Below the pieces are notes generated by a model. That model saw only the letters and a program-made list of their open reading frames with translations, searched no databases and was not told the origin of the DNA. From a virus, in UHGV virus genome UHGV-0150885: a DNA stretch of 57,380 bases, one strand, 5' to 3'. Numbering within the stretch: position 1 is the first letter of the stretch; each line of letters opens with the position of its first letter. The position numbers were made by a program, and so were the translations under genes. This document shows, piece after piece, positions 8,520 to 43,231 of this stretch.

Positions 8520-8621
8520 TTATGGATTGACTAGAAGGAACAAACCGCCGAACAAGGCGACGTTAACAGCGATTGCCGCAGCGATGGCAAAAGCCAGGGC
8601 GAAAACGTGTTTACCGTCCAT
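8520..8621 (-). CDS. Tiny hydrophobic peptide (33 aa)
   Basis: MDGKHVFALAFAIAAAIAVNVALFGGLFLLVNP; AGAGAGG-like SD; below ORF-track cutoff. Confidence 0.25.
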   Translation of the reverse strand: MDGKHVFALAFAIAAAIAVNVALFGGLFLLVNP

Positions 8622-8745
8622 TTTAAAATCCTCTCTGTAACGCTCTCTGACGAGCTAATCGCAAAAAGGTAAGCAAGTGTAGCACCCAATGCGATTTAGC
8701 TCGCTGGTGAGCTTGTTTTGTGGGTAATTTTGGATTTTTGGTAAT

Positions 8746-9858
8746 TCATGATGGTATATGTTGGAAGTTACGCGTCTTGCGGAGCGTTTCCGGCTTCAAC
8801 AGAAAATCTATATCAGCCAGCCAGCCGCTTTCATTCTCACCGAAATAGAAGTTCGGCGCATCAGCTTTAAATTTCTGGAAGTAAGCAATAAAGCTGTCAA
8901 CGCTTTTGTCTTTCAGGTAGTCAGATAGCGAATGGATCTTACGTTCAATATCCCGATCCAGTTCGGCAGGTGGTAACAGGCCGTCAAACGTGCTGTTAAA
9001 TGCTTCCACCACGTCGGCAGCGTTTACAGTAGCTGACAGCTTGCGCCATTGTTCAGCATCAGCCAGATACCCATCAAACTTAGTTACCCGGCAAATGTTA
9101 ACAGGCTTAGGCACTCCACCACGGCTACGCCATTGCGTCAAAGCCCACTCAATTACTAATGTGATCTCATCCTCCGTGTATGCCTTACGTGTTTTTGTTT
9201 CTGTCAGTAGTTCGATGAATGGCTTAGTATCACGACATTTGCATCCTGCCTTTTCGTTGTAGAAAGCCAGGCAACGCAATGCAGATTCGCTTATCTGAAA
9301 GTCACCGTCCTGATTGACTTCTTTTCTTTTTATATTTTTCTTTTCTTCTTCTGTTTCTATTTCTTCTTCTACTTCTACTTCTAATCCATGGTTGTGCCAT
9401 GGTTGTGCCATGGCTGCATCATGGTTGTGCCATGGTTTTTCTTTTTCTGTATCTGGTGAATTATTTACTTCCACTAAAGGATTATCTAACTTTTTATTTT
9501 TTTTGACGTTTAGCCTTTTAATTGCCTCTCTAAATTCGCTTTTTGACGAAGCCATTGATTGATCAAGTCTTTTTGCTAACGACAGGCATCTTACAACGCC
9601 ATGTGAGCAGTCGAACAAGCCAACTTCGATGAAGTATCTCATCATTTCTTCTACACGTTTCGGACTTGATCCTACGTTCCGGGCAATGATTCTTGCATCG
9701 TGTTTTAGTTCGAATGTCAGATTATGTTGATCTACTTCGTAGGCTATTAACTCGATGCAATACCAATAAAGCCCGTATCCTTCCAGGCCATAATCAAGCA
9801 AAACGTTTTGAAGTTTTTCATCGCGGTTCGCATCGCTATCATGCTTAAACCACTTCAT
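8746..9858 (-). CDS. Replication initiation/replisome organiser protein (O-like)
   Basis: 370 aa; N-terminal WFKHDSDANRDEKLQNVLLDYGLEGYGLYWYCIEL replisome-organiser-like domain; iterons inside; upstream of helicase. Confidence 0.65.
   Translation of the reverse strand: MKWFKHDSDANRDEKLQNVLLDYGLEGYGLYWYCIELIAYEVDQHNLTFELKHDARIIARNVGSSPKRVEEMMRYFIEVGLFDCSHGVVRCLSLAKRLDQSMASSKSEFREAIKRLNVKKNKKLDNPLVEVNNSPDTEKEKPWHNHDAAMAQPWHNHGLEVEVEEEIETEEEKKNIKRKEVNQDGDFQISESALRCLAFYNEKAGCKCRDTKPFIELLTETKTRKAYTEDEITLVIEWALTQWRSRGGVPKPVNICRVTKFDGYLADAEQWRKLSATVNAADVVEAFNSTFDGLLPPAELDRDIERKIHSLSDYLKDKSVDSFIAYFQKFKADAPNFYFGENESGWLADIDFLLKPETLRKTRNFQHIPS
9387..9435. repeat. Iteron-like 11-bp tandem repeats (CATGGTTGTGC x4.5) with adjacent pyrimidine-rich tract; candidate origin inside initiator gene
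   Basis: catggttgtgc catggttgtgc catggctgcat catggttgtgc catgg; encodes MAQPWHNH repeats. Confidence 0.6.
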
Positions 9859-9860
9859 TT

Positions 9861-10115
9861 CTATTCCTCCGGCAGCATTACCAGGTAAACGTCATTTACC
9901 GGGTAAGGGTTACAAATAAATCCTTTGTGTGTTAATCCGTTGATAGCAAGTATCACCGTACTTACAGGAATTTCACACATTTTTGCGATTTCTTGGTGTG
10001 ATACCCTGGCGTGGCGGCGATTATCTGCCTTTTCAGCCAGAGCCATTAAGACAAGTTTTTGAATCGGGCTGTTAAGTTCCACTTTCCAAGCCTCATTCAT
10101 CATGTGCATACTCAT
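9861..10115 (-). CDS. HTH DNA-binding protein (Cro/CII-like regulator or O N-terminal-like)
   Basis: 84 aa; VSHQEIAKMCEIPVSTVILAINGL HTH; AGGAG SD; first gene of leftward operon. Confidence 0.55.
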   Translation of the reverse strand: MSMHMMNEAWKVELNSPIQKLVLMALAEKADNRRHARVSHQEIAKMCEIPVSTVILAINGLTHKGFICNPYPVNDVYLVMLPEE

Positions 10116-10223
10116 TGTGTTTCTCCTATGGTTAAAATGAACGCGCGGGCGGGTATCCCATTAGCATTAGGTAGCAGTGATTGACCGCTCAACAGATCCC
10201 GCCGTTGCGTGATATTTGTTTTT

Positions 10224-10255
10224 CGCTTCGCAGCGACACCAGGTTTTTAAAGAGC
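10224..10255 (-). promoter_or_regulatory. nutR-like site (boxA GCTCTTTAAAAA + boxB hairpin CGCTGCGAAGCG) on leftward transcript
   Basis: Reverse complement reads GCTCTTTAAAAACC...CGC-TGCGAA-GCG; same boxA as two + strand nut sites. Confidence 0.4.
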
Positions 10256-10335
10256 TTTTAAGGTATGCGCCTTTTTGTGCTATTCCCTCATCTTTTTTCT
10301 TGCGTCTTTGCAAGTCCGGCTTTACCTTGTCTGCA

Positions 10336-10363
10336 AGTTTACAGAATGGTGTTTTTCGGTCAA
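10336..10363 (-). promoter_or_regulatory. Candidate PR promoter (TTGACC -16- TAAACT) for leftward early operon
   Basis: Hexamers on - strand between cI start and first leftward gene. Confidence 0.4.
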
Positions 10364-10422
10364 GGCTTGAAAAATACATTTTGTGACTTGCATCAAACTT
10401 TTTAGGGCGATAGGGTAGCGAT

Positions 10423-11070
10423 ATGAAAACAAAATGGTATGACTTAGCAAAACAACTCATGCGGGCGCAAGGCATGAGCCAGGATTCATTGGCGGATCTC
10501 ATGGGGATCACAAAAGGCGGCTTATCTCACTGGCTGAATGGTCGCCGCGAGCCAAATCTTGAAGATATTGCGCGGATTATGCGGGCGCTTGGTCGTCGGC
10601 AGTTTACGGTCACTCATGACGGGATGGTTATCGATGATTCAGTTTCAAATACGTTGCCGGGAGCGCCGCCGCTCGACGTGGGACGTTATCCGGTTATTGA
10701 CTGGAAAGACGCAGGAAACTACATGGAAGAAGCAAAACGCGCATTACTACCACACGTTAACACGAGCGTGATTTGTTCGGATGATAGTTATTGGCTGGTC
10801 GCAAAAGGTGAGTCAATGAACGCACCGCAGGGATTAAGTATCCCGGCAGGGACGATGATACTTGTCGATCCGCACGCGCCAGCTATTGACGGCAAACTGG
10901 TTATAGCCCAACTGGAGGAAGGGCAAACGCCGACGTTTAAACAGTTAATCATTGATGGAGGTCAAAGGCTTTTACGTTCGCTTAATCCGCTGTACCCACC
11001 AATCCCGCTAAACCCTGAATCAAAAATTATTGGCGTGGTGGTGGATGCAAAGATCGTAAACCTGCCATAA
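10423..11070 (+). CDS. cI: CI-like repressor, HTH-XRE + LexA-like peptidase S24 domain
   Basis: 215 aa; N-term HTH (QDSLADLMGITKGGLSHWLNG); C-term S24 motifs (KGESM ... TFKQL). Confidence 0.85.
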   Translation: MKTKWYDLAKQLMRAQGMSQDSLADLMGITKGGLSHWLNGRREPNLEDIARIMRALGRRQFTVTHDGMVIDDSVSNTLPGAPPLDVGRYPVIDWKDAGNYMEEAKRALLPHVNTSVICSDDSYWLVAKGESMNAPQGLSIPAGTMILVDPHAPAIDGKLVIAQLEEGQTPTFKQLIIDGGQRLLRSLNPLYPPIPLNPESKIIGVVVDAKIVNLP

Positions 11071-11075
11071 ACATT

Positions 11076-11100
11076 AGCCGCCGGATGGCGGCTTTTCTTT
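11076..11100 (+). terminator. Rho-independent terminator after cI
   Basis: AGCCGCC-GGAT-GGCGGCT hairpin followed by TTTCTTT. Confidence 0.6.
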
Positions 11101-11180
11101 GCCCGGAAAGCACCAAAACGTAAACCGAAAACAGTTTTTATTGTTTGAATATCAATGAGATAGAAAATATTTTAAAAAAG

Positions 11181-11222
11181 TATACAAAATGGATTGACTC
11201 AACATATCACGGGGCGTATATT
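11181..11222 (+). promoter_or_regulatory. Candidate PL promoter: TATACAAAATGG box, -35 TTGACT, 17 bp, -10 TATATT
   Basis: Near-consensus sigma70 hexamers with 17-bp spacer upstream of nutL and N-like gene. Confidence 0.5.
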
Positions 11223-11267
11223 GCGAGTCAAAGGAGGGAAGGCAGTAGAAAAAAGGAAGTTTGAAAA

Positions 11268-11302
11268 TGCTCTTTAACAATCCGGTTGCACTGAAATGTG
11301 CA
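11268..11302 (+). promoter_or_regulatory. nutL-like site: boxA TGCTCTTTAACAA + boxB hairpin TGCAC-TGAAAT-GTGCA
   Basis: rrn-type boxA followed 7 nt later by 5-bp stem/6-nt loop hairpin, 30 bp upstream of N-like gene. Confidence 0.55.
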
Positions 11303-11332
11303 GACATAAATTTCAACTAAGGAAATAAGATT

Positions 11333-11623
11333 ATGAATGCGAAAATTACTTACGGTAACTGTGAGAGCAAACTTAACGCCCGCGCCCGCCGACGGATGAA
11401 ACGGGCAGCAGAGCAAGATGAAGGCCCGCACATACAGAAGGTTGATAGAGTGGAAAAAGCTATTCGCTTTGCAAATGAGGAAAAATGCGAACCAAATAGC
11501 GTTAAAGGACGTCGCAAGGGAGCAACAAAATGGTATCAGGAAAATGAAAGCGGCAACTACTTTCACGCAACGCAGCCGCGCCAGCTTGGGGAAAAACCCC
11601 TCGATAAAGTCCGATACCATTAA
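11333..11623 (+). CDS. N-like transcription antitermination protein
   Basis: 96 aa; N-terminal arginine-rich motif NARARRRMKRAAEQ like lambda/P22 N ARM; first gene after PL and nut. Confidence 0.6.
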   Translation: MNAKITYGNCESKLNARARRRMKRAAEQDEGPHIQKVDRVEKAIRFANEEKCEPNSVKGRRKGATKWYQENESGNYFHATQPRQLGEKPLDKVRYH

Positions 11624-11653
11624 TACATAACGTAAACAACAGGAGGTGACATT

Positions 11654-11776
11654 ATGGTTATCCAGGCGCTTCAATTCAAACTGGCGGTAGCGGAAATGCT
11701 TCACGATGCCGAAATGTGGAGCGCCGCGAATAAAGCCTTGTATGTGGTATTAACAGCGAAGGAGATTAAAGGGTGA
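11654..11776 (+). CDS. Small hypothetical protein (40 aa)
   Basis: Strong SD AGGAGGT 7 nt upstream; stop overlaps erf start (GTGA). Confidence 0.4.
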   Translation: MVIQALQFKLAVAEMLHDAEMWSAANKALYVVLTAKEIKG

Positions 11777-12414
11777 AAACAGAGCTACACAAGAAACTGT
11801 GGACGATTCAGCAGACGCTTAACGCGCCTAAGAATCAGCGTAATAACTTCGGGGGTTATAGCTATCGTTCAGCGGAGGATATTCTGGAAGCGGTTAAACC
11901 GCTACTTCAAAATGTCACACTAACGCTGAATGATGAAATTATCCTGATTGGTGAGCGTTATTACGTTAAAGCCACTGCGACATTAAGCGACGGCGAGGAC
12001 GCAATAGCGGTAACTGCTTACGCAAGGGAGGAAGAAAACAAGCGCGGTATGGATGCAAGCCAGCTAACAGGAGCAACATCAAGTTACGCGCGGAAATATG
12101 CCTTGAACGGTTTATTCTGCATAGACGACGCGAAAGACGCTGATACTGATGCTTATGCTAAACAGACAAATCAACAGCCACGCCAGCAGAAAAACCCGCC
12201 AAAACAACAACCGCAGCAGCAGAAAGCGCCACCAAATCCTGATGAAGTGTTAGCACGTTTCTGTGATGCGGCAGCGAAAGCGCCGGACGCGAACAAATTG
12301 CGCGAGATCTTCGGCAAGTGCTGGAAGCTACTGCCTAAAGATTCAGAACAACAACAAAAAGCGAAAGACGTTTATGACATTCGCTTAAAAGAGCTTAACG
12401 GGGAGATTAATTAA
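11773..12414 (+). CDS. erf: Erf-family single-strand annealing protein
   Basis: 213 aa; colinear with P22 Erf (NAPKNQ..YRSAEDILEAVKPLL, ERYYVKATAT, TGATSSYARKYALNGLF). Confidence 0.85.
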   Translation: MKTELHKKLWTIQQTLNAPKNQRNNFGGYSYRSAEDILEAVKPLLQNVTLTLNDEIILIGERYYVKATATLSDGEDAIAVTAYAREEENKRGMDASQLTGATSSYARKYALNGLFCIDDAKDADTDAYAKQTNQQPRQQKNPPKQQPQQQKAPPNPDEVLARFCDAAAKAPDANKLREIFGKCWKLLPKDSEQQQKAKDVYDIRLKELNGEIN

Positions 12415-12833
12415 TGAGTTTAAATTCAATCACGCTGGGCGGAAATATCGGAAACGACATGGAAATTCGCTACACGCAAAACGGAAAAGCGATTGGTAGT
12501 TTCTCGTTAGCTGTAACGAATGGCTACGGCGATAATAAGCGGACAATGTGGATCACTTGCCTGGTATTTGGTGAGCGTGCGGAAAAATTAGCGCCGCATA
12601 TCCGCAAGGGCGGAAAGATAGTGGTAAGCGGTCGCCTGGATGTTCGGCAATATGACCGGAACGACGGCACGAAGGGAACGGCTGTAGAAGTAGCGGTCAG
12701 TGAATTCGAATTCATGAACGTTAACCAGCAGGGCCAGCAGCAAGGCCAGCAGCAGAAAGCGCCGCCGCAGCAGCAGAATAATAACGGGAACAATCCTCCG
12801 CCGATGGACTTCGACGACGATATTCCTTTTTAG
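12414..12833 (+). CDS. ssb: Single-stranded DNA-binding protein
   Basis: 139 aa; OB-fold SSB motifs, Gln/Pro-rich tail ending DFDDDIPF. Confidence 0.85.
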   Translation: MSLNSITLGGNIGNDMEIRYTQNGKAIGSFSLAVTNGYGDNKRTMWITCLVFGERAEKLAPHIRKGGKIVVSGRLDVRQYDRNDGTKGTAVEVAVSEFEFMNVNQQGQQQGQQQKAPPQQQNNNGNNPPPMDFDDDIPF

Positions 12834-12849
12834 AATCAATAGGTTAGCG

Positions 12850-13128
12850 ATGGGTGATTATTTAAAACCGCCACCGCCGCCACGAACAAAAGAGCAAGTA
12901 TTAAAAGAAGCCCGCGATCAAATCGATCGGGGGCTTTTTTTATGTGGCACGGCAGCGGAACGAATGGCGAAAAGATTTAGTGACCTGTACGCAAAGCAAA
13001 TCTGGTTTGACAACTGGCAAGCGAGTTTTTACCCGCTGCAAAGAAAACCGGATATGCAGTGGCCTGAATATGTCGATCCACGTATGCGCAAATATCGCGG
13101 GCGTATGGGCCAGGTTATTAACGATTAA
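12850..13128 (+). CDS. Hypothetical protein (92 aa)
   Basis: ORF track; same-strand operon context. Confidence 0.5.
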   Translation: MGDYLKPPPPPRTKEQVLKEARDQIDRGLFLCGTAAERMAKRFSDLYAKQIWFDNWQASFYPLQRKPDMQWPEYVDPRMRKYRGRMGQVIND

Positions 13129-13140
13129 TGAGGTATCGAA

Positions 13141-13394
13141 TCATGACAGCTACAACATTAAGCGAAAATAACGGCAGAGGTTTTCAGAGGACTGCGGAAA
13201 GTCTTGATGATAGTGACGTCTTTATTGATTTCGGCGGCGGTAACTATGAATTCGAAACGTCTGCGGGGTGGGTGGATAAATGGCCTTTCCCTACTCGCCA
13301 GGAATTAAGTAACCGTAAATCATTTGGCGAAGACGCCGAACGTCTGGCGAATAATAAATGGCTTGATAAATTCATTGCGGAGGGTGGCAAATGA
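13141..13394 (+). CDS. Hypothetical protein (~84 aa)
   Basis: Start MTATTLSEN with GAGGTA SD. Confidence 0.5.
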
Positions 13395-13504
13395 ATCTCG
13401 CAAAAATTGCCGCATTGCTCGCGGCGGTAGCAGTGGCGGTGCTGTATCTCAGTGTTTCGCTTTATATCACGGTGGCGATCATCAAACTGATTACTAATAT
13501 GTGA
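13391..13504 (+). CDS. Tiny hydrophobic peptide (37 aa)
   Basis: MNLAKIAALLAAVAVAVLYLSVSLYITVAIIKLITNM; ATGA start/stop overlap with upstream gene. Confidence 0.4.
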   Translation: MNLAKIAALLAAVAVAVLYLSVSLYITVAIIKLITNM

Positions 13505-13512
13505 GGCCAATT

Positions 13513-13632
13513 ATGAAAGTCGGTAAGGATATTGTAAGGGTTGCGTTTTGCGTTATTTGCTTCCTGTTTACGGTTGTGTTTTGCGGCGCACTGGCGGCGG
13601 TGATTAGCTTTATTGGTAAGGGGTTAATGTGA
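13513..13632 (+). CDS. Tiny hydrophobic peptide (39 aa)
   Basis: MKVGKDIVRVAFCVICFLFTVVFCGALAAVISFIGKGLM; stop overlaps next ORF start. Confidence 0.4.
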   Translation: MKVGKDIVRVAFCVICFLFTVVFCGALAAVISFIGKGLM

Positions 13633-13904
13633 TGATGATTTGGGATGCAAAGGCGGGTGATCTCGTTGTTTTGCCTGCATATCGTAGTGATCCTGGCCTG
13701 GTCGTGCTGAATAAAACATGTAGCGATCTTGAACGACCGTTACTTGTTCAATATTTAGATGGCACGCTGATCGAGCCGCGCTACTTCGATAGTATCGTAC
13801 TAACGGCCCGCAATGTTCGTGTTAAGCCGTTCCGGGCTTATGTTGAAAACCACTGGCGGCGGTTGTTCGCTGGTCTAAATGGGATGTTCGGCGTATGGCT
13901 ATAA
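13629..13904 (+). CDS. Hypothetical protein (91 aa)
   Basis: ORF track; coupled to neighbours. Confidence 0.5.
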   Translation: MMMIWDAKAGDLVVLPAYRSDPGLVVLNKTCSDLERPLLVQYLDGTLIEPRYFDSIVLTARNVRVKPFRAYVENHWRRLFAGLNGMFGVWL

Positions 13905-14077
13905 AATTGGTGAAGGTTAAAGACCTGAAAGGCGGTGAGAAGATCCGCGCGTGGTGGGGATATGAATTTATTGCTACTGCCTTTTATTTCGGGCCAGGGG
14001 GTCAGGTAACAATATTCGATGAAGATTACGACGAGGTAGGCCAATGGCATCTTGAACAATATGTCGAGGTGTTATAA
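13895..14077 (+). CDS. Hypothetical protein (60 aa)
   Basis: ORF track. Confidence 0.45.
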   Translation: MAIKLVKVKDLKGGEKIRAWWGYEFIATAFYFGPGGQVTIFDEDYDEVGQWHLEQYVEVL

Positions 14078-14410
14078 ATGAAAATTAAATTCCACAAAGC
14101 GTATGACGCTAACACAAACAAGCTATCTCTATTCATTGAATTCGAACGCCGGATCGTGTGTGTGCCGTGGGCGCGTCGCTTCAATGATGCTGGCGGGCGG
14201 CGACAATTTGCGGTAGATATGCTGTTACGTGGCTGTGGCCTTATGCGTCCGCTATCTGATTTAAAACGAATGATGCCGGGATCGTTCGGTCAGATTGACG
14301 AAATGGAAATAAGCCCGGAAGAACTGAAACGGGAGCGTGATTTATTCCTTTCAAGCGAAGGAAACCCGTTCAATCCAGAAACTGAAATGAAATGGCATCA
14401 TCCACTATAA
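14078..14410 (+). CDS. Hypothetical protein (110 aa)
   Basis: ORF track. Confidence 0.5.
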   Translation: MKIKFHKAYDANTNKLSLFIEFERRIVCVPWARRFNDAGGRRQFAVDMLLRGCGLMRPLSDLKRMMPGSFGQIDEMEISPEELKRERDLFLSSEGNPFNPETEMKWHHPL

Positions 14411-14421
14411 GGATAAATATT

Positions 14422-15042
14422 ATGAACAATATCAAAACAGCTTATTCACTCGGCAGCGACGGCATGTTAATCACTCGCTACGCGGAGGACGCAAGTTTTC
14501 ATGAAGTGGAAACGAAGGATTATCACGAAGTATTAAAAGATATGAACGCTGGCGCGTATGACGCCGATTTAAACCTGGCGCTACAGATTGTTGATATTAT
14601 GATGGATGCATCAATCCGCGATTACGTTGATTTAAGCCTGGAAGAAAAAACAGATATTGCGCGTTATGTGTTCTGCCTTTCTTTTGTAAAACGCATGGAG
14701 GAAGAATTCGGACGCGTACCAGTACCGGAGGAAGTTGATCCGCTCGCGTTCGGAAGTGCTGTTATTTTCCCGTTAAGTAAGGATCAGTTCGGTAGTGCTT
14801 CACTGCATTGTATGCGCGAACTGATGAAAGGCATCTTTGAGGTTAAGATGTTACAGAAATTTGTTGAGGAAGGACACGAAGAAGTGAACGTTAAGGCGTT
14901 TATTCCGGTGCTTTACGGAAATTTCGTTGGCGATGATATGCGAGCTAATGAATTAGGCGTACAGGCGGCTATCGCTGTGCTTAATGATGCACGGAAAAAC
15001 GCACAGCCTATTCATGAGCCGGAAAAACGCGTACTTCATTAA
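14422..15042 (+). CDS. Hypothetical protein (~206 aa)
   Basis: ORF track; start MNNIKTAY. Confidence 0.55.
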   Translation: MNNIKTAYSLGSDGMLITRYAEDASFHEVETKDYHEVLKDMNAGAYDADLNLALQIVDIMMDASIRDYVDLSLEEKTDIARYVFCLSFVKRMEEEFGRVPVPEEVDPLAFGSAVIFPLSKDQFGSASLHCMRELMKGIFEVKMLQKFVEEGHEEVNVKAFIPVLYGNFVGDDMRANELGVQAAIAVLNDARKNAQPIHEPEKRVLH

Positions 15043-15141
15043 CAGCGTGATTGCGATCACATAAATATACATTTTGTCTTGTCCTGCTGTATCCGTTTTG
15101 TAAACTTAAATCGAAAGGTATACAGAACGGAGGGCGGGAAA

Positions 15142-15324
15142 ATGACAAACTTTGAACGTAACCACAAAAGCAAACTAAACCCGCACTTCATCATTGAGCG
15201 CACGTTAGGCGGACTATTCGCGATTCTGGTCCCGGCGGCGGCTGTAATGCTCGTTTACATGATCATTGACCTGATTATCAAAGCCTTCAACAACGGGATC
15301 TGTATGTACGCGGTTTGCTATTAG
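15142..15324 (+). CDS. Small membrane protein (60 aa)
   Basis: Start MTNFERN with GGAGGG SD; one TM helix (LGGLFAILVPAAAVMLVYMII). Confidence 0.45.
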   Translation: MTNFERNHKSKLNPHFIIERTLGGLFAILVPAAAVMLVYMIIDLIIKAFNNGICMYAVCY

Positions 15325-15328: not shown

Positions 15329-15553
15329 GTGGATATGGAAAACCAAATCATGCTGCATTGCGTAGAGGGTGGCGTAGGTCCGGGCGCTTACGTCGCCGGG
15401 CGGAAATATCCGGCAAACGAAGTGTTAAGCCACGAACAATGGCGGGAGGACGCTTATCACGTAACTGTATGGGGCGCGGAAGTCCAGGGTGTCGAGATGA
15501 TTGGTATCGAGCAATATCTTGGAAAATTCGATTATGGCTTACTGGAGGCGTGA
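15329..15553 (+). CDS. Hypothetical protein (74 aa)
   Basis: ORF track. Confidence 0.45.
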   Translation: MDMENQIMLHCVEGGVGPGAYVAGRKYPANEVLSHEQWREDAYHVTVWGAEVQGVEMIGIEQYLGKFDYGLLEA

Positions 15554-15555
15554 TT

Positions 15556-15654
15556 ATGTGGCTGATTGATTTAATCCTGGGTTGTTGGTTGTTCGCCCTG
15601 GTTGGCTTTGTTTGTTATTTCGCCTGGGAAGAAGGAAAACACAATGGACGCTGA
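15556..15654 (+). CDS. Tiny hydrophobic peptide (32 aa)
   Basis: MWLIDLILGCWLFALVGFVCYFAWEEGKHNGR; GGAGG SD. Confidence 0.35.
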   Translation: MWLIDLILGCWLFALVGFVCYFAWEEGKHNGR

Positions 15655-25420: not shown

Positions 25421-25633
25421 ATGATCGCCACGTTAATTACGCGAACAAGGGAGGCCGCAAGCTATGTAGCTGGTATTCTGACAACCATAATTGGCGGTTT
25501 ATCCCTGAATGACATAGCCGTGATAGTTGGTATCGGGTGCACGATAGGCACTTTCGCGGTTAACTGGTATTACAAGCGACAGGAGAATAAGCGGGAGCAG
25601 GAAAGGCACAACCTGGAGATGAAAAAATTATGA
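25421..25633 (+). CDS. Holin (two-TM, pinholin-like)
   Basis: 70 aa; two hydrophobic helices, charged C-tail; ATGA overlap with endolysin. Confidence 0.7.
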
Positions 25634-36688: not shown

Positions 36689-37071
36689 AGCGCAGCGAAG
36701 TCTACGACAATGTAAGGGATTGGATACAATCCCACGGATACGATGAGGGCTATATTTTGCAGGCCCGTTTCTGGAATGAGCGAAGTAATTCGAATAATGA
36801 CAGATACATCGTAATCCAACAGAACGGCGGCGCACCGGGAGAGGAAGCCATTACCCGCGACTATTTTCGCATACTGGTTATTTCTGCGCGTAATGACGCA
36901 AATATCAGTGAAGTGGAAGACCTGGCGGACGCCATCCGGCAAAGTATGTTAAGTGAATTTAAAACTGATAAAATTACACTCATGAAGCCAACAGGCGCTA
37001 TTCCGGTGATGCAGACAAGGGAAGGGCGCTTTATTTTCACAGTAGCTTTTCAGACCATCATATCTAGATAA
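36685..37071 (+). CDS. Tail completion/terminator-like protein (putative)
   Basis: 128 aa; immediately upstream of major tail protein. Confidence 0.45.
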   Translation: MKRSEVYDNVRDWIQSHGYDEGYILQARFWNERSNSNNDRYIVIQQNGGAPGEEAITRDYFRILVISARNDANISEVEDLADAIRQSMLSEFKTDKITLMKPTGAIPVMQTREGRFIFTVAFQTIISR

Positions 37072-37084
37072 GAGGTAAAATAAC

Positions 37085-37597
37085 ATGTCTCAAACTTGCG
37101 AAAAAGGCACATTTACAGGCCGCGACGTCGCGGTATTCTTCGCTATTGCTTGCCCGAATGCGAAGCCAGCCGATGAGGAATACCAGGCATTAGGCATGAT
37201 GCGCGGTAAAACGCTTTCCGTTGAATGGGAAACTGCCGACGCCACCGCTGATAAATCAGCAGATTACACAAAGGAATCAATGGTAACTTACAAATCTGTT
37301 ACCTTCTCCGGTGATGGCGTATCCCGTACCGAAGAAATCCATAACCAGAAGGCACTAAAACGTCACGTAATGACGCCAGGCGAGGCCACTGGTAATCAGC
37401 CGTATGTGTGGTTGAAAATTGTTTCCCCGCTTGATGTGACCGAAGGCCCATTTCTTTGCACCAGCTTTGAAGAGGAAAATCCTCACGATGATGTTTCTAC
37501 CTGGTCTATTGAATGTTCAAGCGCCGGACAAGTAGGCGTTGATGATCTTCCGGTAGAAGAAGACGCCGGAACAGAAGAAGAACAGCAAACCGAATAA
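37085..37597 (+). CDS. Major tail (tube) protein (putative)
   Basis: 170 aa; strong SD; followed by terminator; position before chaperone/tape measure. Confidence 0.55.
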   Translation: MSQTCEKGTFTGRDVAVFFAIACPNAKPADEEYQALGMMRGKTLSVEWETADATADKSADYTKESMVTYKSVTFSGDGVSRTEEIHNQKALKRHVMTPGEATGNQPYVWLKIVSPLDVTEGPFLCTSFEEENPHDDVSTWSIECSSAGQVGVDDLPVEEDAGTEEEQQTE

Positions 37598-37605
37598 CAT
37601 TTGAT

Positions 37606-37629
37606 GGGGCCATCCGGCCCCTTTCTTTT
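37606..37629 (+). terminator. Rho-independent terminator after major tail gene
   Basis: GGGGCC-ATCC-GGCCCC hairpin + TTTCTTTT. Confidence 0.6.
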
Positions 37630-37632
37630 AGG

Positions 37633-38319
37633 GTGATAATTATGATTCATGTTCGTACCGGACAATTTGCGGCGGTGGTGGATAATAAACGCTACGTGTT
37701 TAACCCCTGCTTCGCTGCAATGGCGAAAATTGGCGGCGATCGTGAGCTTGTCCAGTTATTCGCAACCATTCACGGTAGCAAGTATCCCTCCCGCCTGCCT
37801 AACGATCCAGACCTCCGTAATCGCATTCTGGCGCGGTGTTATGGTGAGATAGTGCAATCGTCCATCCATATCCTGAAATGTTGCTCTGACGACGATATAA
37901 CAGACCTGGTGGGCGAATGTCGATTTACTCCTGCGGGCAAGCTACGACAGAAACCCGGATTAATGCCAACCGAAGATATTATCACGCTGGCACAGCATTG
38001 CATGTACCACGGTCTAATCGGTGACGGGCCGGAAGAAGACGCCGGAGAGATCCCGGAAGGGGAATATAAGCCAGCCTTTAACGTGCTGGAATTCGTTTAT
38101 TCTGCCGTTGCTCACCTGGGATTATCTGAATCGGAAGCATGGGCCATGACCATGACCGGATATAGGGCCGCTGTACGCGCTAAAATGCCGCCAGACGCGA
38201 AAAACGAGAAAGCTAAACCAAACGTTCAGATAAATAAACAGGTTTATGACGAGCGAATGGAGGCCGCTAGAAAGGCACTGGAAAGAATGAAAAATCGCAG
38301 GCAGAAAAAAGCCCGGTAG
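37633..38319 (+). CDS. Tail assembly chaperone-like protein (putative)
   Basis: 228 aa; located between major tail and tape measure; Lys-rich C-terminus. Confidence 0.4.
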   Translation: MIIMIHVRTGQFAAVVDNKRYVFNPCFAAMAKIGGDRELVQLFATIHGSKYPSRLPNDPDLRNRILARCYGEIVQSSIHILKCCSDDDITDLVGECRFTPAGKLRQKPGLMPTEDIITLAQHCMYHGLIGDGPEEDAGEIPEGEYKPAFNVLEFVYSAVAHLGLSESEAWAMTMTGYRAAVRAKMPPDAKNEKAKPNVQINKQVYDERMEAARKALERMKNRRQKKAR

Positions 38320-38336
38320 ATCCGGGCGTTTTGTTT
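38305..38336. terminator. Bidirectional Rho-independent terminator between convergent genes
   Basis: A6-GCCCGG-TAGAT-CCGGGC-GTTTTGTTT. Confidence 0.6.
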
Positions 38337-38337
38337 A

Positions 38338-38691
38338 TTAGGCCGCGCCAGCGTTGATTCTGTTATGGATTGCGTGCCCCTTTATTTCTCCATGTCTGAA
38401 CACTTCCGCGACTTCGGGATCTTTATTTTCCGCTTTCAATGCTTCGTATTTTTCGTGTATTTTTCTTGCTTTAACTATTTCCTTGTCAAGAAATGGTATT
38501 AAGGCTTTTTGTTTACACGCCATGTCAAAAATAATTTCTTTATACCCCGTACCGTCACCGTGTCTTATGTCGTACAGGTGCGCGGCGTGAGCGCATTCAT
38601 AAATAGCCTTATCCATTTTATCGTCGGCGTGGGCGTTAAATGCAAAACCAACCAGCGCCACCATCATTACTACTTTCGCTAACCGTTTCAT
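38338..38691 (-). CDS. Secreted/periplasmic moron protein with signal peptide
   Basis: 117 aa; MKRLAKVVMMVALVGFAFNAHA signal peptide; reverse orientation inside tail operon. Confidence 0.55.
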   Translation of the reverse strand: MKRLAKVVMMVALVGFAFNAHADDKMDKAIYECAHAAHLYDIRHGDGTGYKEIIFDMACKQKALIPFLDKEIVKARKIHEKYEALKAENKDPEVAEVFRHGEIKGHAIHNRINAGAA

Positions 38692-38702
38692 AAAACACCC
38701 CG

Positions 38703-38927
38703 TTAAATATCAGCAATTTTTACAATGTTTTTGTCTTTAATGATTCTATTGCCGACTTGAAACCCTTTAACTAATCTCAACCAGGCTTCCTTTTGTGCTG
38801 GGTGATCAATGTGCTCCCATTCCTTGTTATTGTTTCTCCCGGCGTACACTTCGCCGTCGATGATTTTAAATTGTTCGCCTTTGTGGAAGCCACCAATTTT
38901 TTCATAGATACCATCATAACGTTTCAT
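38703..38927 (-). CDS. Moron protein (74 aa), hypothetical
   Basis: Same 5' translation-initiation sequence (GGGGTGTTTTATGAAACG) as downstream gene. Confidence 0.5.
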   Translation of the reverse strand: MKRYDGIYEKIGGFHKGEQFKIIDGEVYAGRNNNKEWEHIDHPAQKEAWLRLVKGFQVGNRIIKDKNIVKIADI

Positions 38928-38979
38928 AAAACACCCCCACTTAATTGTTTTGTTTAACTATCTTTTCCTTTGACTTCCT

Positions 38980-39021
38980 TATACAAAATGGAGTCGGTAA
39001 AGTAAAGCCATTTTGTATAAA
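38980..39021. promoter_or_regulatory. Palindromic divergent promoter unit: TATACAAAATGG -16- CCATTTTGTATA, with TATAAA/TATAAG -10 hexamers in both orientations
   Basis: Perfect 12-bp inverted repeat; each box sits 24 nt upstream of a -10-like hexamer on its strand. Confidence 0.45.
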
Positions 39022-39058
39022 ATAGAGGCACAGATCACATTTTGTATGAGGTTAAATC

Positions 39059-41401
39059 ATGGCTACCAGTTTAGGTACAATTTATTACGAGATCGACGCC
39101 AAAACAGGGCAACTCCTTGTCGTACAGCGACAGGCCGATCAGACATTCGACAGTATCGAGCGCGGCGCAAAACGTGCTGACCGCCAGGTTAATACACTGA
39201 AAACATCAATCAAAGCACTGACCAGGGTTATCCACCTGTTAGTCGCAGCGGAGGCCGTGCGCCAGTTTATTGACATGGCAGAGCAGGCAAAACAGCTACG
39301 CATAAAAATCAAAATGCTGACAGGTGACGCAGAAAGCGCAAACCGGGTTTTTGATGGCCTTAAATCTATCGCTCACCAGACCGGGCAAAGTATTAAAGAT
39401 ACAACCGACCTATGGCAAGGTTTAGCCATCTCATTAAAAAATACATCTGCCACCGAAGGGCAGATCCTTAATCTGGTAGGCACGCTTCAAAAAATGGGGG
39501 CGTTAGGCGGGGCATCAGCCGAACAAATGTCTAACTCCATGCGCCAATTCCGGCAGGCGGTTGACGGCGGCGTACTGCGTGCGGAAGAATTTAACAGTTT
39601 ACTGGAAAACACCCCAACCATCGTACAAACAATGGCAAAACAAATGGGGTTATCAATGGGCCAGTTCCGCGCCGAAATGCTGGAAGGTAAGATCACCGCT
39701 GAAAGAATGGTCAACGCTATCCAGGCGGCAACGAAAGAAACAAACGAGCAATTTGAACAACTCCCGCGCACGTCCGGCGTTGCGTTCAATTCGCTAAAAA
39801 TCGAAGTCATGGGACTGGTTGAAAAACTCGATGATCTATTAGGCGTGTCAGACAGAGTGGTCACTATCCTGGATAATACTGCCACTGGTGGACGATGGCT
39901 GGGCGAAAAAGTGAGTTTTGCAGCTAACTGCTTTAATACATTGAAGCGCGCTGGAGGTGAGTTTATCGACATGTTTGATGATGTTGCGGTTAAGGCTAAG
40001 GAGGTTGCCGACAAGATCATCGAAATGGTGACGCCAATTAAGGCAATGATGGATGCTTATAAGTGGGCGAAGGAATTGGTCGGAAAAAGCAAGGATGAAT
40101 ATAACAGCGATCCGTTCAAGAAATACGGTAAACGCTTAGGTTGGGCGATGTTAGCATGGGAAGACCATCAAGGAATGCTTAAACGCACAGAAGAAGCGCA
40201 GAAGGAAGAACAAGCCTCAAATAATGATGGCAGTATCACCGGATTTGACAAACCAGTTGGCAAGCCGAAAAAACAGAAGAAAGCGAAAAAATCAGACTAT
40301 GACCGCTTAGGCGATCAGGGTATCAGTGTTTCCGACCAGTACAACAAAGACGCCGCCGCCATGCGCAAAGCATTAAAGAGCGGCATGGCCATTGATGCTG
40401 CCTTCGCCCAGGGCAAAATCACGCTCCTTGAATACAAAGGCGCTATGAAGGGCATAAGAGAAGAAAGGGATCGCACGCTGGCTGGACTTGAAGCCGAAGC
40501 CTTGCAAGATAAATGGGATAACATGATTAATCCTATGGATAAACTCAAAGGGCAAGTAGATCCCATTCAGCAGGCGCAAAATGAATGGGCCATCCGTAAG
40601 CAAATGTTGTTAGATCTGAACGCCTCAGAGGCACAAATCCGGGCTGAACAACTCCAGCATGAGCAAACCATCGCCAACCTGAAGTGGGAACAATGGCAGG
40701 CGCAAAGCGATACTAACGCCCTAATAGGCGATTGCGTCAGCGGCTTAAAAGGCGGCATGAGCAACGCTATCACCGGATTATTGAACGGTACGCAATCCCT
40801 CAGTGAGATGTTTGCTAACCTGGGAAGCAATATACTCGGTACGGTGGGTAACAGGCTTGCCGACATTGCCGGGAACTGGATAGCCGATCAAATCATGATG
40901 GAAAGTCAGAGTAAGGCAACGCAAGCCAGCACCACGGCTGGCGCGGTAGCGGCGCAAGGTCAGATTGCAGCGGCAGCGGCCCCGGCGGCAGCGGCGACAG
41001 CGGCGTCAACTGGCGGTAGCTGGGCGGCGGCTGGCGCGGCGGCACTATCCGCGATCATGTCACTGGCGACGTCGATTTTCGGCGGCGGGCGCTACAACGG
41101 CGGCGCGGTTAACGGTGGCAATCTTTACAGGGTTGGTGAGCACGGTATACCAGAACTGTTTACTACCACTGGCGGGAAACAGTACATGATCCCCGGTGAA
41201 GGTGGGCGTGTTACACCAGGCCGCGACCTGGGCGGCAGCGGTGGCATCAACATGCCTGTCAGTATCACAGTTCAAACGACAAACGGTTTTAGTGATGATG
41301 ATAGCCGCAGACTTGAAGACACAATGAAGCGCGTAGCTATGAGTGTAGTCAGAGAACAAAGCACGCGTCCTGGCGGCATATTGCAACCACGCCGCAAATA
41401 A
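39059..41401 (+). CDS. H: Tail tape measure protein
   Basis: 780 aa; long helical protein with Gly/Ala-rich C-terminal segment; position before gpM. Confidence 0.85.
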   Translation: MATSLGTIYYEIDAKTGQLLVVQRQADQTFDSIERGAKRADRQVNTLKTSIKALTRVIHLLVAAEAVRQFIDMAEQAKQLRIKIKMLTGDAESANRVFDGLKSIAHQTGQSIKDTTDLWQGLAISLKNTSATEGQILNLVGTLQKMGALGGASAEQMSNSMRQFRQAVDGGVLRAEEFNSLLENTPTIVQTMAKQMGLSMGQFRAEMLEGKITAERMVNAIQAATKETNEQFEQLPRTSGVAFNSLKIEVMGLVEKLDDLLGVSDRVVTILDNTATGGRWLGEKVSFAANCFNTLKRAGGEFIDMFDDVAVKAKEVADKIIEMVTPIKAMMDAYKWAKELVGKSKDEYNSDPFKKYGKRLGWAMLAWEDHQGMLKRTEEAQKEEQASNNDGSITGFDKPVGKPKKQKKAKKSDYDRLGDQGISVSDQYNKDAAAMRKALKSGMAIDAAFAQGKITLLEYKGAMKGIREERDRTLAGLEAEALQDKWDNMINPMDKLKGQVDPIQQAQNEWAIRKQMLLDLNASEAQIRAEQLQHEQTIANLKWEQWQAQSDTNALIGDCVSGLKGGMSNAITGLLNGTQSLSEMFANLGSNILGTVGNRLADIAGNWIADQIMMESQSKATQASTTAGAVAAQGQIAAAAAPAAAATAASTGGSWAAAGAAALSAIMSLATSIFGGGRYNGGAVNGGNLYRVGEHGIPELFTTTGGKQYMIPGEGGRVTPGRDLGGSGGINMPVSITVQTTNGFSDDDSRRLEDTMKRVAMSVVREQSTRPGGILQPRRK

Positions 41402-41405
41402 ACAA

Positions 41406-41436
41406 AACCCCGGTACAATGCCGGGGTTATCTTTTA
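41406..41436. terminator. Bidirectional terminator after tape measure gene
   Basis: CCCCGG-TACAATG-CCGGGG hairpin + TTATCTTTTATT. Confidence 0.6.
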
Positions 41437-41616
41437 TTCAACTTCGTCGTTTTTAAATTCGTTGTTTACATAAAGCTGTAATGCTTTTATTAGTTCGGCG
41501 GCTTGCTTTTTGTCTATTACGATAAGTTCGCAGTCGCTTTCAAGCCATAATCTTTCGTCATACTCAATGCTAAGAGTGATTCGCCTACATTCTTCCGTTT
41601 CATTAATAATCATCAT
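41434..41616 (-). CDS. Moron protein (60 aa), hypothetical
   Basis: ORF track; last gene of reverse-oriented 3-gene cassette. Confidence 0.45.
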   Translation of the reverse strand: MMIINETEECRRITLSIEYDERLWLESDCELIVIDKKQAAELIKALQLYVNNEFKNDEVE

Positions 41617-41723
41617 TTACCCCTATAATCGACCATTCCGCGCGACATATCCCCTTCCGAAAATCACCTGCCAAATATTCCAGATCTCCCGCCATGTAAA
41701 TTTATCATCTTCCATATCCCACC

Positions 41724-41978
41724 TCACTTATGGCAACCGCGCACGCCGCATAATTCATTGTATTTGTGGTGTTCAACAATTAACCAAACCTTTAAGTCCT
41801 GACTGTAAAGCCGCCAGTCGGGGTTAATATCCATTTTGTAGCCGTATCCATCGCGTAATTTTTTGGGGTAGGCTTCTTTTCTCAGGAAAGCGTTTAATAA
41901 AGCCTTACCTTTTTTGATGATCCGGTCCTGTGCGTTTTTCTGTGCTTTCAGGTTTTTATCAATCGCTACCAGTTTCAT
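41724..41978 (-). CDS. Moron protein (84 aa), basic, hypothetical
   Basis: ORF track. Confidence 0.5.
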   Translation of the reverse strand: MKLVAIDKNLKAQKNAQDRIIKKGKALLNAFLRKEAYPKKLRDGYGYKMDINPDWRLYSQDLKVWLIVEHHKYNELCGVRGCHK

Positions 41979-41997
41979 AGCCCACCCCCATCATCCT

Positions 41998-42165
41998 TAG
42001 TTGACCGCTTTCAGGTAGAAATCCCGATATTCGTTTGCTTTCACGTTCATGTAGAACTGGCCCATTTTGAACGCATCATCGAAGCCTTTAACAATCGCTA
42101 CTTCTACTTGTTCGAATGCGTCGTTAAGCATTACGACTGCGTAGTGTTTATCGTTGCCTTTCATC
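41998..42165 (-). CDS. Moron protein (55 aa), hypothetical
   Basis: MKGNDKHYAVVMLNDAFEQVEVAIVKGFDDAFKMGQFYMNVKANEYRDFYLKAVN; strong SD AAGGAGG. Confidence 0.45.
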
Positions 42166-42205
42166 TTGGGCCTCCTTTGTTGGTACTGCTTTCTTCTTGC
42201 TTTCT

Positions 42206-42247
42206 ATATACATCTTGTTGCGTCCTGTGTGAAGCCATTTTGTAAAC
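42206..42247 (-). promoter_or_regulatory. Candidate promoter for reverse cassette 2 (TTTACAAAATGG box, 24 nt, -10 TATATA)
   Basis: Same box-to--10 spacing as the other promoter-family members. Confidence 0.45.
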
Positions 42248-42332
42248 TGGTTATAATTCTTGTGATGAATATCTCATTTTTCGCGTAGCAACGCGTAAAG
42301 ATGTACACAAAATGTAACTTATAGGGGGAAGT

Positions 42333-42686
42333 ATGCCGGAAGTGTTTACCTGGACGCCGCAGCGAAGCTACAGCGTAACCAGGGAGCCAAACGTATCGGT
42401 CGTCAAGCTGGGTGATGGTTATGAGCAACGCCAGGTTAAGGGGATTAATCCCTTGCTCGACGACTACAGCGTGGTTTTTAAAGGTTCGAGCGCCGGATGT
42501 GGTGACGCTGGCAATCCAGCGGTCCAGGCAGAGGCGTTTTTACGGGCGCGCGGCGCGGTCGAGGCGTTTTACTGGACACCATCAATGGATGGGGAGCAAA
42601 GGCTTTTTGTCTGCCGAAAATGGAACATGACGAAAGACGGCCCTGTATACACGCTAACCGCGACATTTGAACAAGTTATCAATTAA
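42333..42686 (+). CDS. M: Minor tail protein M
   Basis: 117 aa; colinear with lambda gpM (VKLGDGYEQRQ, FYWTP, ATFEQVIN vs lambda RFGDGYSQRA, FLWTPP, AEFEQVVN). Confidence 0.85.
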   Translation: MPEVFTWTPQRSYSVTREPNVSVVKLGDGYEQRQVKGINPLLDDYSVVFKGSSAGCGDAGNPAVQAEAFLRARGAVEAFYWTPSMDGEQRLFVCRKWNMTKDGPVYTLTATFEQVIN

Positions 42687-42695
42687 GGGGGCAAC

Positions 42696-42881
42696 ATGTA
42701 CGGGATGTGCGTTAAGACGGGCGATGAATCATTTACGCTATTCGAAGACTATCAGATCGATAACCTCACGGTAGTGAGTGACAAGGGCGACACCTGGTAT
42801 CTGCATGACTACGGCGACGGGTATGTGGGATGCAGATCATACGAAGGGAAGGAGTATTTATTTCTGATTGAGGGCGTTTAA
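42696..42881 (+). CDS. Hypothetical protein (61 aa)
   Basis: ORF track; SD AAGGGGG; inserted between M and L. Confidence 0.45.
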   Translation: MYGMCVKTGDESFTLFEDYQIDNLTVVSDKGDTWYLHDYGDGYVGCRSYEGKEYLFLIEGV

Positions 42882-42882
42882 T

Positions 42883-42969
42883 ATGCTGATTGATGGTTTA
42901 GTAATGGTATTCATTATCGCGGTAGGTATGGCTATTTTTTACGAAATCGATAGCCGGAACGACAAATAA
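42883..42969 (+). CDS. Tiny hydrophobic peptide (28 aa)
   Basis: MLIDGLVMVFIIAVGMAIFYEIDSRNDK. Confidence 0.35.
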   Translation: MLIDGLVMVFIIAVGMAIFYEIDSRNDK

Positions 42970-42976
42970 AATAACA

Positions 42977-42998
42977 CCCCGCCGGAGCGGGGTTTTTC
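42977..42998 (+). terminator. Rho-independent terminator
   Basis: CCCCGC-CGGA-GCGGGG + TTTTTCG. Confidence 0.6.
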
Positions 42999-43002
42999 GT
43001 GT

Positions 43003-43140
43003 TAGAAGTTCATGTGCATCAATCCCATTGGGTGAGCGTGTGCCATATTCTCAGCTATTGCGCACCAGTCCAAATCCGCAGCGTGTACGCCAAATACTAT
43101 CAATCCCATTGCTATTAGTGCTAAAACTTCGATTTTCATG
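43003..43140 (-). CDS. Small secreted peptide with signal sequence (45 aa)
   Basis: MKIEVLALIAMGLIVFGVHAADLDW... Confidence 0.35.
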
Positions 43141-43150
43141 ATTCACTCCG

Positions 43151-43231
43151 TTAATTCAGAAAGGCATAAACAATGGCGATTGCGCCAGCCACTACCAGAA
43201 CATTTTCAATTACTTCGTCCACTCTATTCAT
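43151..43231 (-). CDS. Tiny hydrophobic peptide (26 aa)
   Basis: MNRVDEVIENVLVVAGAIAIVYAFLN. Confidence 0.25.
   Translation of the reverse strand: MNRVDEVIENVLVVAGAIAIVYAFLN

Follow-up and report, generated by a model that had tools for sequence, protein, structure and literature searches.

The prophage in UHGV virus genome UHGV-0150885, a 57,380-nucleotide (nt) stretch of DNA whose whole length we call the window, carries seven scattered, very short hydrophobic open reading frames (ORFs), here named A, B1, B2, C1, C2, D1 and D2 (Table 1). Comparison with related loci leads us to a probability of roughly 80% that at least six, and probably all seven, are genuine genes for lineage-specific single-pass inner-membrane micropeptides. 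The seven ORFs are under purifying selection, each in its own frame (D2 less securely), and each product consists of little more than one hydrophobic segment. A preliminary description of this DNA had listed seven such ORFs as having a Shine-Dalgarno (SD) motif and a hydrophobic single-transmembrane segment. We recovered every one in frame at its listed coordinates. Each opens with ATG, closes with a stop codon and has a GGAG-, GAGG- or AGGA-type SD motif 5–13 nt upstream of the start, a 19-residue Kyte-Doolittle mean above 2.0 and a summed Hessa apparent free energy (dGapp) below 0.

Frame-specific conservation of seven short reading frames

Related loci were collected from IMG/VR around the 13.6-kb, 42.3-kb and 28.2-kb genes of the window and through peptide-pattern scans of the same database; further ones came from annotated Escherichia coli and phage records and one metagenome scan. 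For A, B1, C1, C2, D1 and D2 we relied on DNA patterns, exact look-up and BLAST against the fetched loci. The tests used distinct nucleotide versions only, with single-nucleotide variant codons sorted into synonymous and nonsynonymous and a binomial P calculated against the expected synonymous fraction. All seven ORFs showed a synonymous excess in the proposed frame (Table 1); in the two shifted sense frames the excess was never significant for any ORF by the binomial test. Pairwise ratios of nonsynonymous to synonymous polymorphism (pN/pS) were 0.10–0.42 in frame against 0.5–6 in the shifted frames. Conservation across related prophages had been proposed as a check in the preliminary description; because all seven ORFs show the excess in the proposed sense frame only, the objection that they lack frame-specific conservation does not hold.

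The pattern was plain along A, where 22%, 28% and 69% of the columns vary at codon positions 1, 2 and 3 against 49–53% in the flanking spacers; polymorphism is three to five times lower at the first two positions than at the third and in the spacers. Changes in length kept the frame: an in-frame 6-nt deletion gives a 108-nt variant of B1 and an in-frame 3-nt deletion a 117-nt variant of B2, and both deletion variants have diverged in sequence and retained their hydrophobicity. The ATG and the SD motif are conserved among relatives. At D1, homology to two relatives ends right after the stop codon, and a different terminator then follows. Frame-specific selection together with a preserved start, stop and frame was thus found for A, B1, B2, C1, C2 and D1, and in part for D2.

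A uniform scan of the window, which asked for ORFs of 20–60 amino acids (aa) with an ATG or GTG start, an SD motif and a Kyte-Doolittle 17-residue mean of at least 2.0, returned 15 ORFs; 100 dinucleotide shuffles gave 1.08 ± 0.98 (maximum 4). Of these, thirteen occupy spaces between genes of the same strand; the other two, antisense inside larger genes, are clearly spurious. The same scan found 4 matches in phage lambda, Rz1 among them, and 8 in the initial 50 kb of phage mEp010; the phage in the window carries several-fold more such ORFs than lambda. One unannotated 26-aa hydrophobic ORF with an SD motif was noticed in lambda itself (NC_001416, 40567–40647, + strand; MTIYITELITGLLVIAGLFIWGRGKS), where it occupies precisely the space separating ren from ninB.

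The figure of more than fifteen membrane micropeptides put forward earlier is roughly right: the seven scattered ORFs, D3 and the seven ORFs of the main array make 15, and the 60-aa gene E1, with its one transmembrane segment, brings the number to 16. D3 and E1 had both been overlooked. It had also been said that none of these ORFs would be seen in an ORF track with a 60-aa cutoff, which stands in essence; the one qualification is that C1 forms the end of a spurious 98-aa ORF with a TTG start (15358–15654) in that track.

Table 1 Coordinates, peptides and codon variation of the short hydrophobic ORFs and associated features of the window.
Feature	Position	Strand	Length and peptide	Synonymous/nonsynonymous variant codons	P	Expected synonymous fraction	Distinct versions	Remarks
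A	8520-8621	-	33 aa MDGKHVFALAFAIAAAIAVNVALFGGLFLLVNP	37/13	4e-12	0.27	25 nucleotide, 18 peptide	Own SD motif GAGAGGA; 27-residue uncharged segment
B1	13391-13504	+	37 aa MNLAKIAALLAAVAVAVLYLSVSLYITVAIIKLITNM	45/23	2e-11		23 nucleotide, 18 peptide	Rightward early operon, downstream of erf and ssb
B2	13513-13632	+	39 aa MKVGKDIVRVAFCVICFLFTVVFCGALAAVISFIGKGLM	38/34	2e-7	0.24	29 nucleotide, 26 peptide	Starts 8 nt after B1
E1	15142-15324	+	60 aa					One central hydrophobic segment; rare accessory; absent from the preliminary description
C1	15556-15654	+	32 aa MWLIDLILGCWLFALVGFVCYFAWEEGKHNGR	9/3	2e-4		4	SD motif GGAGG; rare accessory
C2	15644-15733	+	29 aa MDAELMFMACCWGIVMVGLFLRWVIEKYL	15/17 (C2 family)	8e-5	0.17	23 nucleotide, 15 peptide	Near-core family of 29-32 aa, motif C.G...LF.RW.IE
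Main array	27413-28175	+	22-47 aa each					Seven consecutive hydrophobic ORFs, flanked by a 184-aa gene and the small terminase subunit
D1	42883-42969	+	28 aa MLIDGLVMVFIIAVGMAIFYEIDSRNDK	11/3	9e-6		4	Last gene of the rightward unit; rare accessory
Terminator hairpin	42976-42993	both						Rho-independent; between convergent D1 and D3
D3	43002-43139	-	45 aa	29/17	5e-10		9 nucleotide	Last gene of the leftward cassette 44470-43002; absent from the preliminary description
D2	43151-43231	-	26 aa MNRVDEVIENVLVVAGAIAIVYAFLN	14/3 (intact copies only)	6e-7			Least secure of the seven

Membrane character, distribution and operon position

At 26–39 aa, with a single hydrophobic helix and no other domain, all seven predicted products agree with what is understood by a small single-pass membrane protein (at most 50 aa). 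Uncharged runs span 26–27 residues in A, B1 and B2 and 16–19 residues in C1, C2, D1 and D2. AlphaFold2, given a 47-sequence alignment, predicted B2 as a single helix from residue 3 to residue 38, with a predicted local distance difference test (pLDDT) score of 88. Certain residues are conserved: K4, F7-A8, FAIA, VNV and LFGGL are invariant in A, K5-I6-A7, Y19, S23 and Y25 in B1, and LF.RW.IE in C2, and C16, F17, F19 and G25 of B2 are invariant or nearly so. The flanking charges gave no confident topology.

Window positions 46–1165 are E. coli chromosome (yddH/ISAs1 region, 99.8% match), and the remainder is a prophage that begins with an integrase gene. An 18-kb query from it matched seven mEp-type phages (Escherichia phages mEp010, mEp013, mEp044, mEp554, mEp515, mEp021 and MagusPhagus) and 35 E. 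coli prophages at 83–87% identity over 72–91%; such prophages were present in 35 of 5,426 complete E. coli genomes. Its gene order is that of mEp010, making the two genomes collinear, and the prophage is a member of the mEpimmI (mEp021-like) group of temperate coliphages in E. coli. These Nus-dependent, non-lambdoid phages from human faeces, reported to be as frequent as lambdoid phages in the collection studied, have 106–128 PHANOTATE gene calls in each of 48 published genomes (PMC11893012). Micropeptides are not a topic of that genome paper.

Across the loci compared, A, B1, B2 and C2 are near-core genes of the mEpimmI group, C1 and D1 rare accessories, and D2 variable. The A peptide pattern occurred in 40 IMG/VR contigs, all of mEpimmI type. 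B1 and B2 form a constant pair, intact in practically every relative, and B2 is intact in all homologous loci. The C2 motif LF.RW.IE was present in 36 of 38 relatives, and no broken copy was seen in 39 loci. C1 occurred in 3 IMG/VR contigs and in a handful of E. coli genomes; KKa019 has an intact, 78%-identical copy, and in STEC308 the 5' half is replaced at a mosaic recombination junction. E1, whose peptide is conserved in 6 of the fetched loci in 3 versions, accompanied C1 wherever surveyed. D1 occurred in 3 IMG/VR contigs and 2 of the 5,426 E. coli genomes. The ORFs of the main array are conserved as peptides in subsets of relatives with presence/absence mosaicism, and the last of them (28092–28175) was found in 45 related loci. 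The suggestion that such peptides are a general property of the phage is borne out by this distribution, with A, B1, B2 and C2 in nearly every relative and the array peptides in subsets.

The families are narrow and lineage-specific. B2 forms 47 clusters of 37–40 aa, the named ones from E. coli or phages only, and a profile search with B2 yielded 3 real representatives among 1.84e9 proteins. Separately, one IMG/VR contig (IMGVR_UViG_3300045988_062505; locus L132, 6840–7244) carries a tandem duplication of the A unit with a 235-nt period; both copies have ATT in place of ATG and two non-conservative changes and lie at the end of the fetched stretch. The duplicated unit may be decaying, or it may be an artefact of assembly.

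The surroundings of A, B1, B2, C1 and C2 point to early operons. A lies between a replication-initiator-like gene of Lin1244_N type (8746–9858) and a Rha-like gene (7617–8447), upstream of a helicase gene, and probably belongs to a leftward early/replication operon. B1, B2, C1 and C2, with the repressor on one side and the cytosine methyltransferase on the other, would fall within a rightward operon antiterminated by the N-like Gp17 and bounded by nutR1 and nutR2, as suggested by the nutR1, gp17, gp32 methylase, nutR2 layout described for the mEpimmI rightward early operon (PMC11893012, section 3.5), together with the gene order of two annotated relatives. Production of the five peptides would then be expected early in the lytic cycle. 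A Pfam family is lacking for most of the early genes around them, so that guilt by association gave little.

Gene junctions are close. The B1 start overlaps the stop of the upstream gene (ATGA) and the B2 stop overlaps the ATG of the next (TGATG); C1 begins 2 nt after the upstream stop, overlaps C2 by 11 nt, and the C2 stop codon sits inside the SD motif of the following gene. D1 follows the upstream stop by 1 nt and D2 by 0 nt. A is the one ORF that stands apart, between spacers of 124 nt and 72 nt. The tight or overlapping same-strand packing of all ORFs except A fits polycistronic, translationally coupled expression. Directly 3' of B2 lies a 90-aa gene (13632–13904, + strand) that carries the PGAP name 'toxin-antitoxin system toxin subunit' in E. 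coli Ecol_244; it matched no Pfam or NCBIfam model, and a contig scan of other species' representative genomes found no relative of it.

Two transcription units converge at the D ORFs. The rightward unit runs from an M-like tail gene (42333–42686) through a 61-aa gene to D1, which probably closes a late tail-gene transcript. Facing it, between the M-like gene and an L-like tail gene (44306–45058), a leftward cassette of six genes (44470–43002) includes an 82-aa KilAC/ANT-domain protein and is mosaic in content among relatives. The two units meet at a hairpin with a 7-bp stem (6 GC) and a T-run on both strands, which makes the terminator bidirectional. As an insert within late/tail genes that ends at its own terminator, the D2/D3 cassette has the arrangement of a moron; D2 and D3 close it and may be expressed from the prophage. 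The promoter of the cassette has a weak consensus match only. The N-terminus of D3 is a hydrophobic segment of anchor or signal type (...FGVHA followed by AD), and the His/Met-rich tail after it (NMAHAHPMGLMHMNF) could be periplasmic and metal-binding; among relatives D3 has two alternative C-termini, in 45-aa and 38-aa forms.

Annotation of these genes depends on the pipeline, and the earlier remark that they are under-annotated applies to some of the pipelines. The RefSeq pipeline PGAP annotated none of the seven in Ecol_244, RM9245, STEC308 or KKa019; it annotated D3, as hypothetical in RM9245. Other callers, Prodigal included, recorded most of them as hypothetical proteins. Joint Genome Institute (JGI) calls on the metagenome contig of the window (Ga0495776_146573, sample 3300045988) include B1, B2, C1 and E1 and omit C2; PHANOTATE called A (gene mEp010_14), B1, B2 and a C2 homologue in mEp010; and a Third Party Annotation (TPA) Caudoviricetes record holds exact B2, C1, C2 and D3 and a 33-aa TTG-start version of D1. 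The exact B1 peptide is on 451 public contigs, labelled 'hypothetical protein'; exact look-up found the A and D2 peptides in no collection.

As judged by homology searches, the seven ORFs belong to no described protein or RNA family in Pfam, NCBIfam, PHROGs, PADLOC or Rfam. No peptide matched Pfam or NCBIfam below E = 0.001, the best chance-level matches being to unrelated families; the best E-values against PHROGs v4, 0.03–0.5, were to families of unknown function and were not significant; PADLOC gave no match for the eight micropeptides or two D-cassette neighbours; and Rfam gave none in the window, antitoxin RNAs included.

Possible modes of action and competing explanations

On the model of YohP and other small membrane proteins of bacteria, we propose that the micropeptides would enter the inner membrane by a route of the signal recognition particle (SRP)/YidC type, as the 27-aa E. 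coli YohP does, and would act there without an enzymatic domain, by helix–helix packing, either with membrane proteins of the host or the phage or among themselves (B1 with B2). In this way the early set might re-tune host membrane functions during takeover, and the D cassette, which would be expressed in the lysogen, might interfere with incoming phage DNA or other envelope processes, for example in exclusion. There is precedent: SRP-dependent insertion has been described for YohP (PMC7549839), and a review treats membrane peptides as small as these (PMC12648545). Partner binding as the specific mechanism is a tentative proposal, to which we give somewhat less than even odds.

A bolder form of this proposal, which we think improbable, treats A, the obligate pair B1 and B2, and C2 as an early 'membrane takeover kit', each a bare transmembrane helix that docks on a specific host inner-membrane machine. 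Candidate targets would be the divisome, a transporter, the FtsH/HflKC protease or a membrane-bound abortive-infection effector. In a variant of the idea, B1 and B2 might assemble a viroporin-like channel. Were this true, the kit and the variable array (27.4–28.2 kb) would make ~13% of the phage's genes helix-only effectors, and the mEpimmI group would amount to a natural collection of transmembrane helices that inhibit membrane proteins of E. coli.

Several results count against the reading of the seven ORFs as genes for membrane micropeptides, or against parts of it. The hydrophobic run of D2, 16–17 residues, is short or marginal for spanning a bilayer. The conservation of A, B1, B2 and C1 showed no significant helical periodicity (Fourier analysis of per-column entropy, 95–110 degrees); that of C2 was marginal (p = 0.035), and we claim no conserved interaction face. 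C1 and D1 rest on four distinct sequences each. The wobble-sharing antisense '-1' frame also has a synonymous excess, a weaker one, and for B2 the sense and antisense pN/pS are nearly equal (0.40 against 0.42). For the functional part of the proposal, the argument is one of analogy.

D2 needs separate mention, being the least secure of the seven because its start is lost or its frame shifted in part of the relatives. Of 14 homologous loci, 8 have an intact D2, and the other 6 have lost the ATG, alone or with a 1-nt deletion, which likewise speaks against it. Two alternative N-termini occur, MNRVDEV... and MD[EK]V.... After a KilAC-domain gene D2 is always intact, as MD[EK]VIENV...; after a 67-aa gene, the arrangement in the window, three versions are intact and five lack the ATG, with or without the 1-nt deletion. 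Scanning a metagenome with the D2 pattern brought in 3 further loci, all of types already known.

The peptides might instead be self-assembling membrane-active agents, like type I toxins, pinholins or viroporins, that oligomerise, leak ions and depolarise the inner membrane in order to shut down host metabolism, block superinfection or tune the timing of lysis. Oligomerisation of helices is often driven by residues of the mid-helix Asn, GG, Cys and Phe type; A contains a GG pair and, in mid-helix, an invariant Asn, while Cys and Phe are conserved in B2. B1 and B2 always occur together, A stands alone between spacers, and promoter-like and terminator-like elements lie antisense to B1. The peptides also have the size and composition of type I toxins and of small proteins that depolarise membranes, among them YohP, described as doing so when abundant (PMC12719787). 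Against this, none of the peptides matched a hidden Markov model (HMM) of a toxin or holin family, six of the seven are embedded in operons where they overlap or abut their neighbours and do not form stand-alone toxin/antisense modules, promoter-like sites are fewer in the region than in shuffles, and the phage already has a canonical holin–endolysin–spanin cassette. We consider self-assembly rather unlikely.

The elements opposite B1 were examined as a candidate antisense RNA of a type I toxin, with a promoter-like sequence at 13538–13510 (-) and a hairpin at 13425–13409 (-), and rejected as a conserved element. The promoter/terminator-like pair is a weak consensus match. Its hairpin (window 13400–13425, B1 codons 4–12), GC-rich and next to an A-run, is built from the Ala/Leu codons of KIAAL; it is perfectly conserved in close relatives, synonymous sites included, and is gone in divergent B1 variants that retain the peptide. 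No antisense element was found at A. Because six of the seven ORFs are operon-embedded and the pair antisense to B1 is weak and not conserved, the architecture is not that of type I toxins. Holin identity was likewise rejected, the scattered ORFs lying 9–17 kb from the lysis cassette and having no holin match in Pfam or PHROGs. That holin–lysozyme–spanin cassette, recognised by synteny with an annotated relative, occupies 25421–26579, with the holin at 25421–25633.

We give very little credence to the ORFs being no genes at all, that is, chance frames in spacer or regulatory DNA made hydrophobic by base composition. Short T-rich and GC(N)-rich frames do stay open easily; the frame antisense to A is open in all relatives, 2 of the 15 scan matches are spurious antisense ORFs, and D2 is broken in several relatives. 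Against chance stand the 15 ORFs where shuffles give about 1, the lack of any Rfam match, and a synonymous excess that in every ORF is confined to the proposed frame and the wobble-sharing antisense frame. Codon positions 1 and 2 of A are, moreover, far more conserved than the spacers, indels are in frame, and ATG and SD motif are conserved. For A, B1, B2, C1, C2 and D1 these comparisons have largely refuted a chance origin already.

Hardly more credible is that the ORFs are upstream or relay ORFs whose translation delivers ribosomes to the next gene and whose peptides have no function. The TGATG shared by B2 and its successor, the C1–C2 overlap and the position of the C2 stop would suit such coupling. 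Pure relay ORFs should, however, lack amino-acid constraint, whereas here the in-frame pN/pS is low, motifs are invariant and hydrophobic character is kept through substitutions and indels; D1 and D3, moreover, end before a terminator and have no downstream gene to couple to.

That the coding signal belongs to opposite-strand genes, such as 8527–8640 (+) opposite A or 13244–13510 (-) opposite B1, can be set aside almost entirely: the '-1' antisense frame shares third positions, has a synonymous excess and is stop-free opposite A in all 21 versions, with stops in 3 of 26 versions opposite B2 and 2 of 7 opposite C2, but its signal is always weaker than that of the sense frame, it has stops in all versions opposite B1, D1, D2 and D3, the frame opposite A has a TTG start only (in this window; conservation of a start or SD motif there was not examined), it runs against the strand of every neighbouring gene, and its Arg/Lys/Pro-rich translations resemble out-of-frame products. 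In general we assign the sense strand because ATG and SD motif are conserved, because of the indels and of antisense stops elsewhere, and because all neighbours lie on that strand; for B2 the same choice follows from its ATG and SD motif, its indels, the stops in 3 of 26 antisense copies and the strand of the operon.

Relation to known small membrane proteins and neighbouring genes

In size, a single helix and the lack of any other domain, the predicted micropeptides resemble the small inner-membrane proteins of bacteria of up to 50 aa (YohP, AcrZ, MgrB and MgtS of E. coli). Those proteins, too, are often missed by annotation and are expected to act by binding or perturbing membrane components (reviewed in PMC12648545). 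The ORFs of the window differ in being phage-encoded and no part of the host core genome, in lying in phage early and tail operons, and in having no similarity to described families. Type I toxins (Hok/Gef, TisB, Ibs, Ldr and ShoB, some of them prophage-borne) are likewise short hydrophobic single-helix peptides, of 18–50 aa, in E. coli and its prophages; the peptides described here differ from them in the HMM, operon and antisense features set out above. Holins and pinholins are similar as small phage membrane proteins able to oligomerise, whereas the scattered ORFs are not beside the endolysin, fall short of every described holin class in length and match no family.

Inner-membrane proteins that exclude superinfecting phages, among them moron products, include HK97 gp15, T4 Imm and P22 SieA. 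D2 and D3 are similar to exclusion morons in their oppositely oriented cassette among tail genes with its own terminator, a classic moron position, and in their expected membrane location. The D peptides are, however, much smaller (26–45 aa), with one helix, no lipobox and no PHROG match, and A, B1, B2, C1 and C2 lie in early lytic operons and not in a moron. Exclusion lipoproteins of the Lpp kind are described in mEpimmI phages (PMC11893012, section 3.7).

Small hydrophobic phage ORFs under purifying selection are already known as a class, and nothing here contradicts current understanding. Fremin et al. (in Cell Rep 39:110984, 2022) reportedly catalogued computationally predicted small-gene families of phages and enterobacteria. 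Compared with such catalogues, the families are resolved here gene by gene in one phage group, by core or accessory status, operon position and junctions. Conserved small ORFs under purifying selection, mostly hydrophobic or transmembrane and of unknown function, are a recognised class ('The Cryptic Bacterial Microproteome', PMC11188072). What appears to be new is gene-level evidence for these particular lineage-specific families, and their abundance relative to lambda. RefSeq annotation of mEpimmI prophages omits this whole layer of conserved genes. The result is a short candidate list for how temperate coliphages manipulate the host inner membrane and a case for annotating such genes.

Two further features of the window were recorded in passing. 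A 40-aa non-hydrophobic ORF at 11654–11776 (+) (MVIQALQFKLAVAEMLHDAEMWSAANKALYVVLTAKEIKG), directly upstream of erf and overlapping it, has a peptide found in 63 fetched loci and is called by JGI. Two ORFs of exactly 1325 aa lie at 46278–50255 (+) and 51612–55589 (+); their identity as paralogues was considered and rejected, with 75 identities over a 350-column local alignment. The first of the two matches the position of the mEp010 gene annotated as host specificity protein J.

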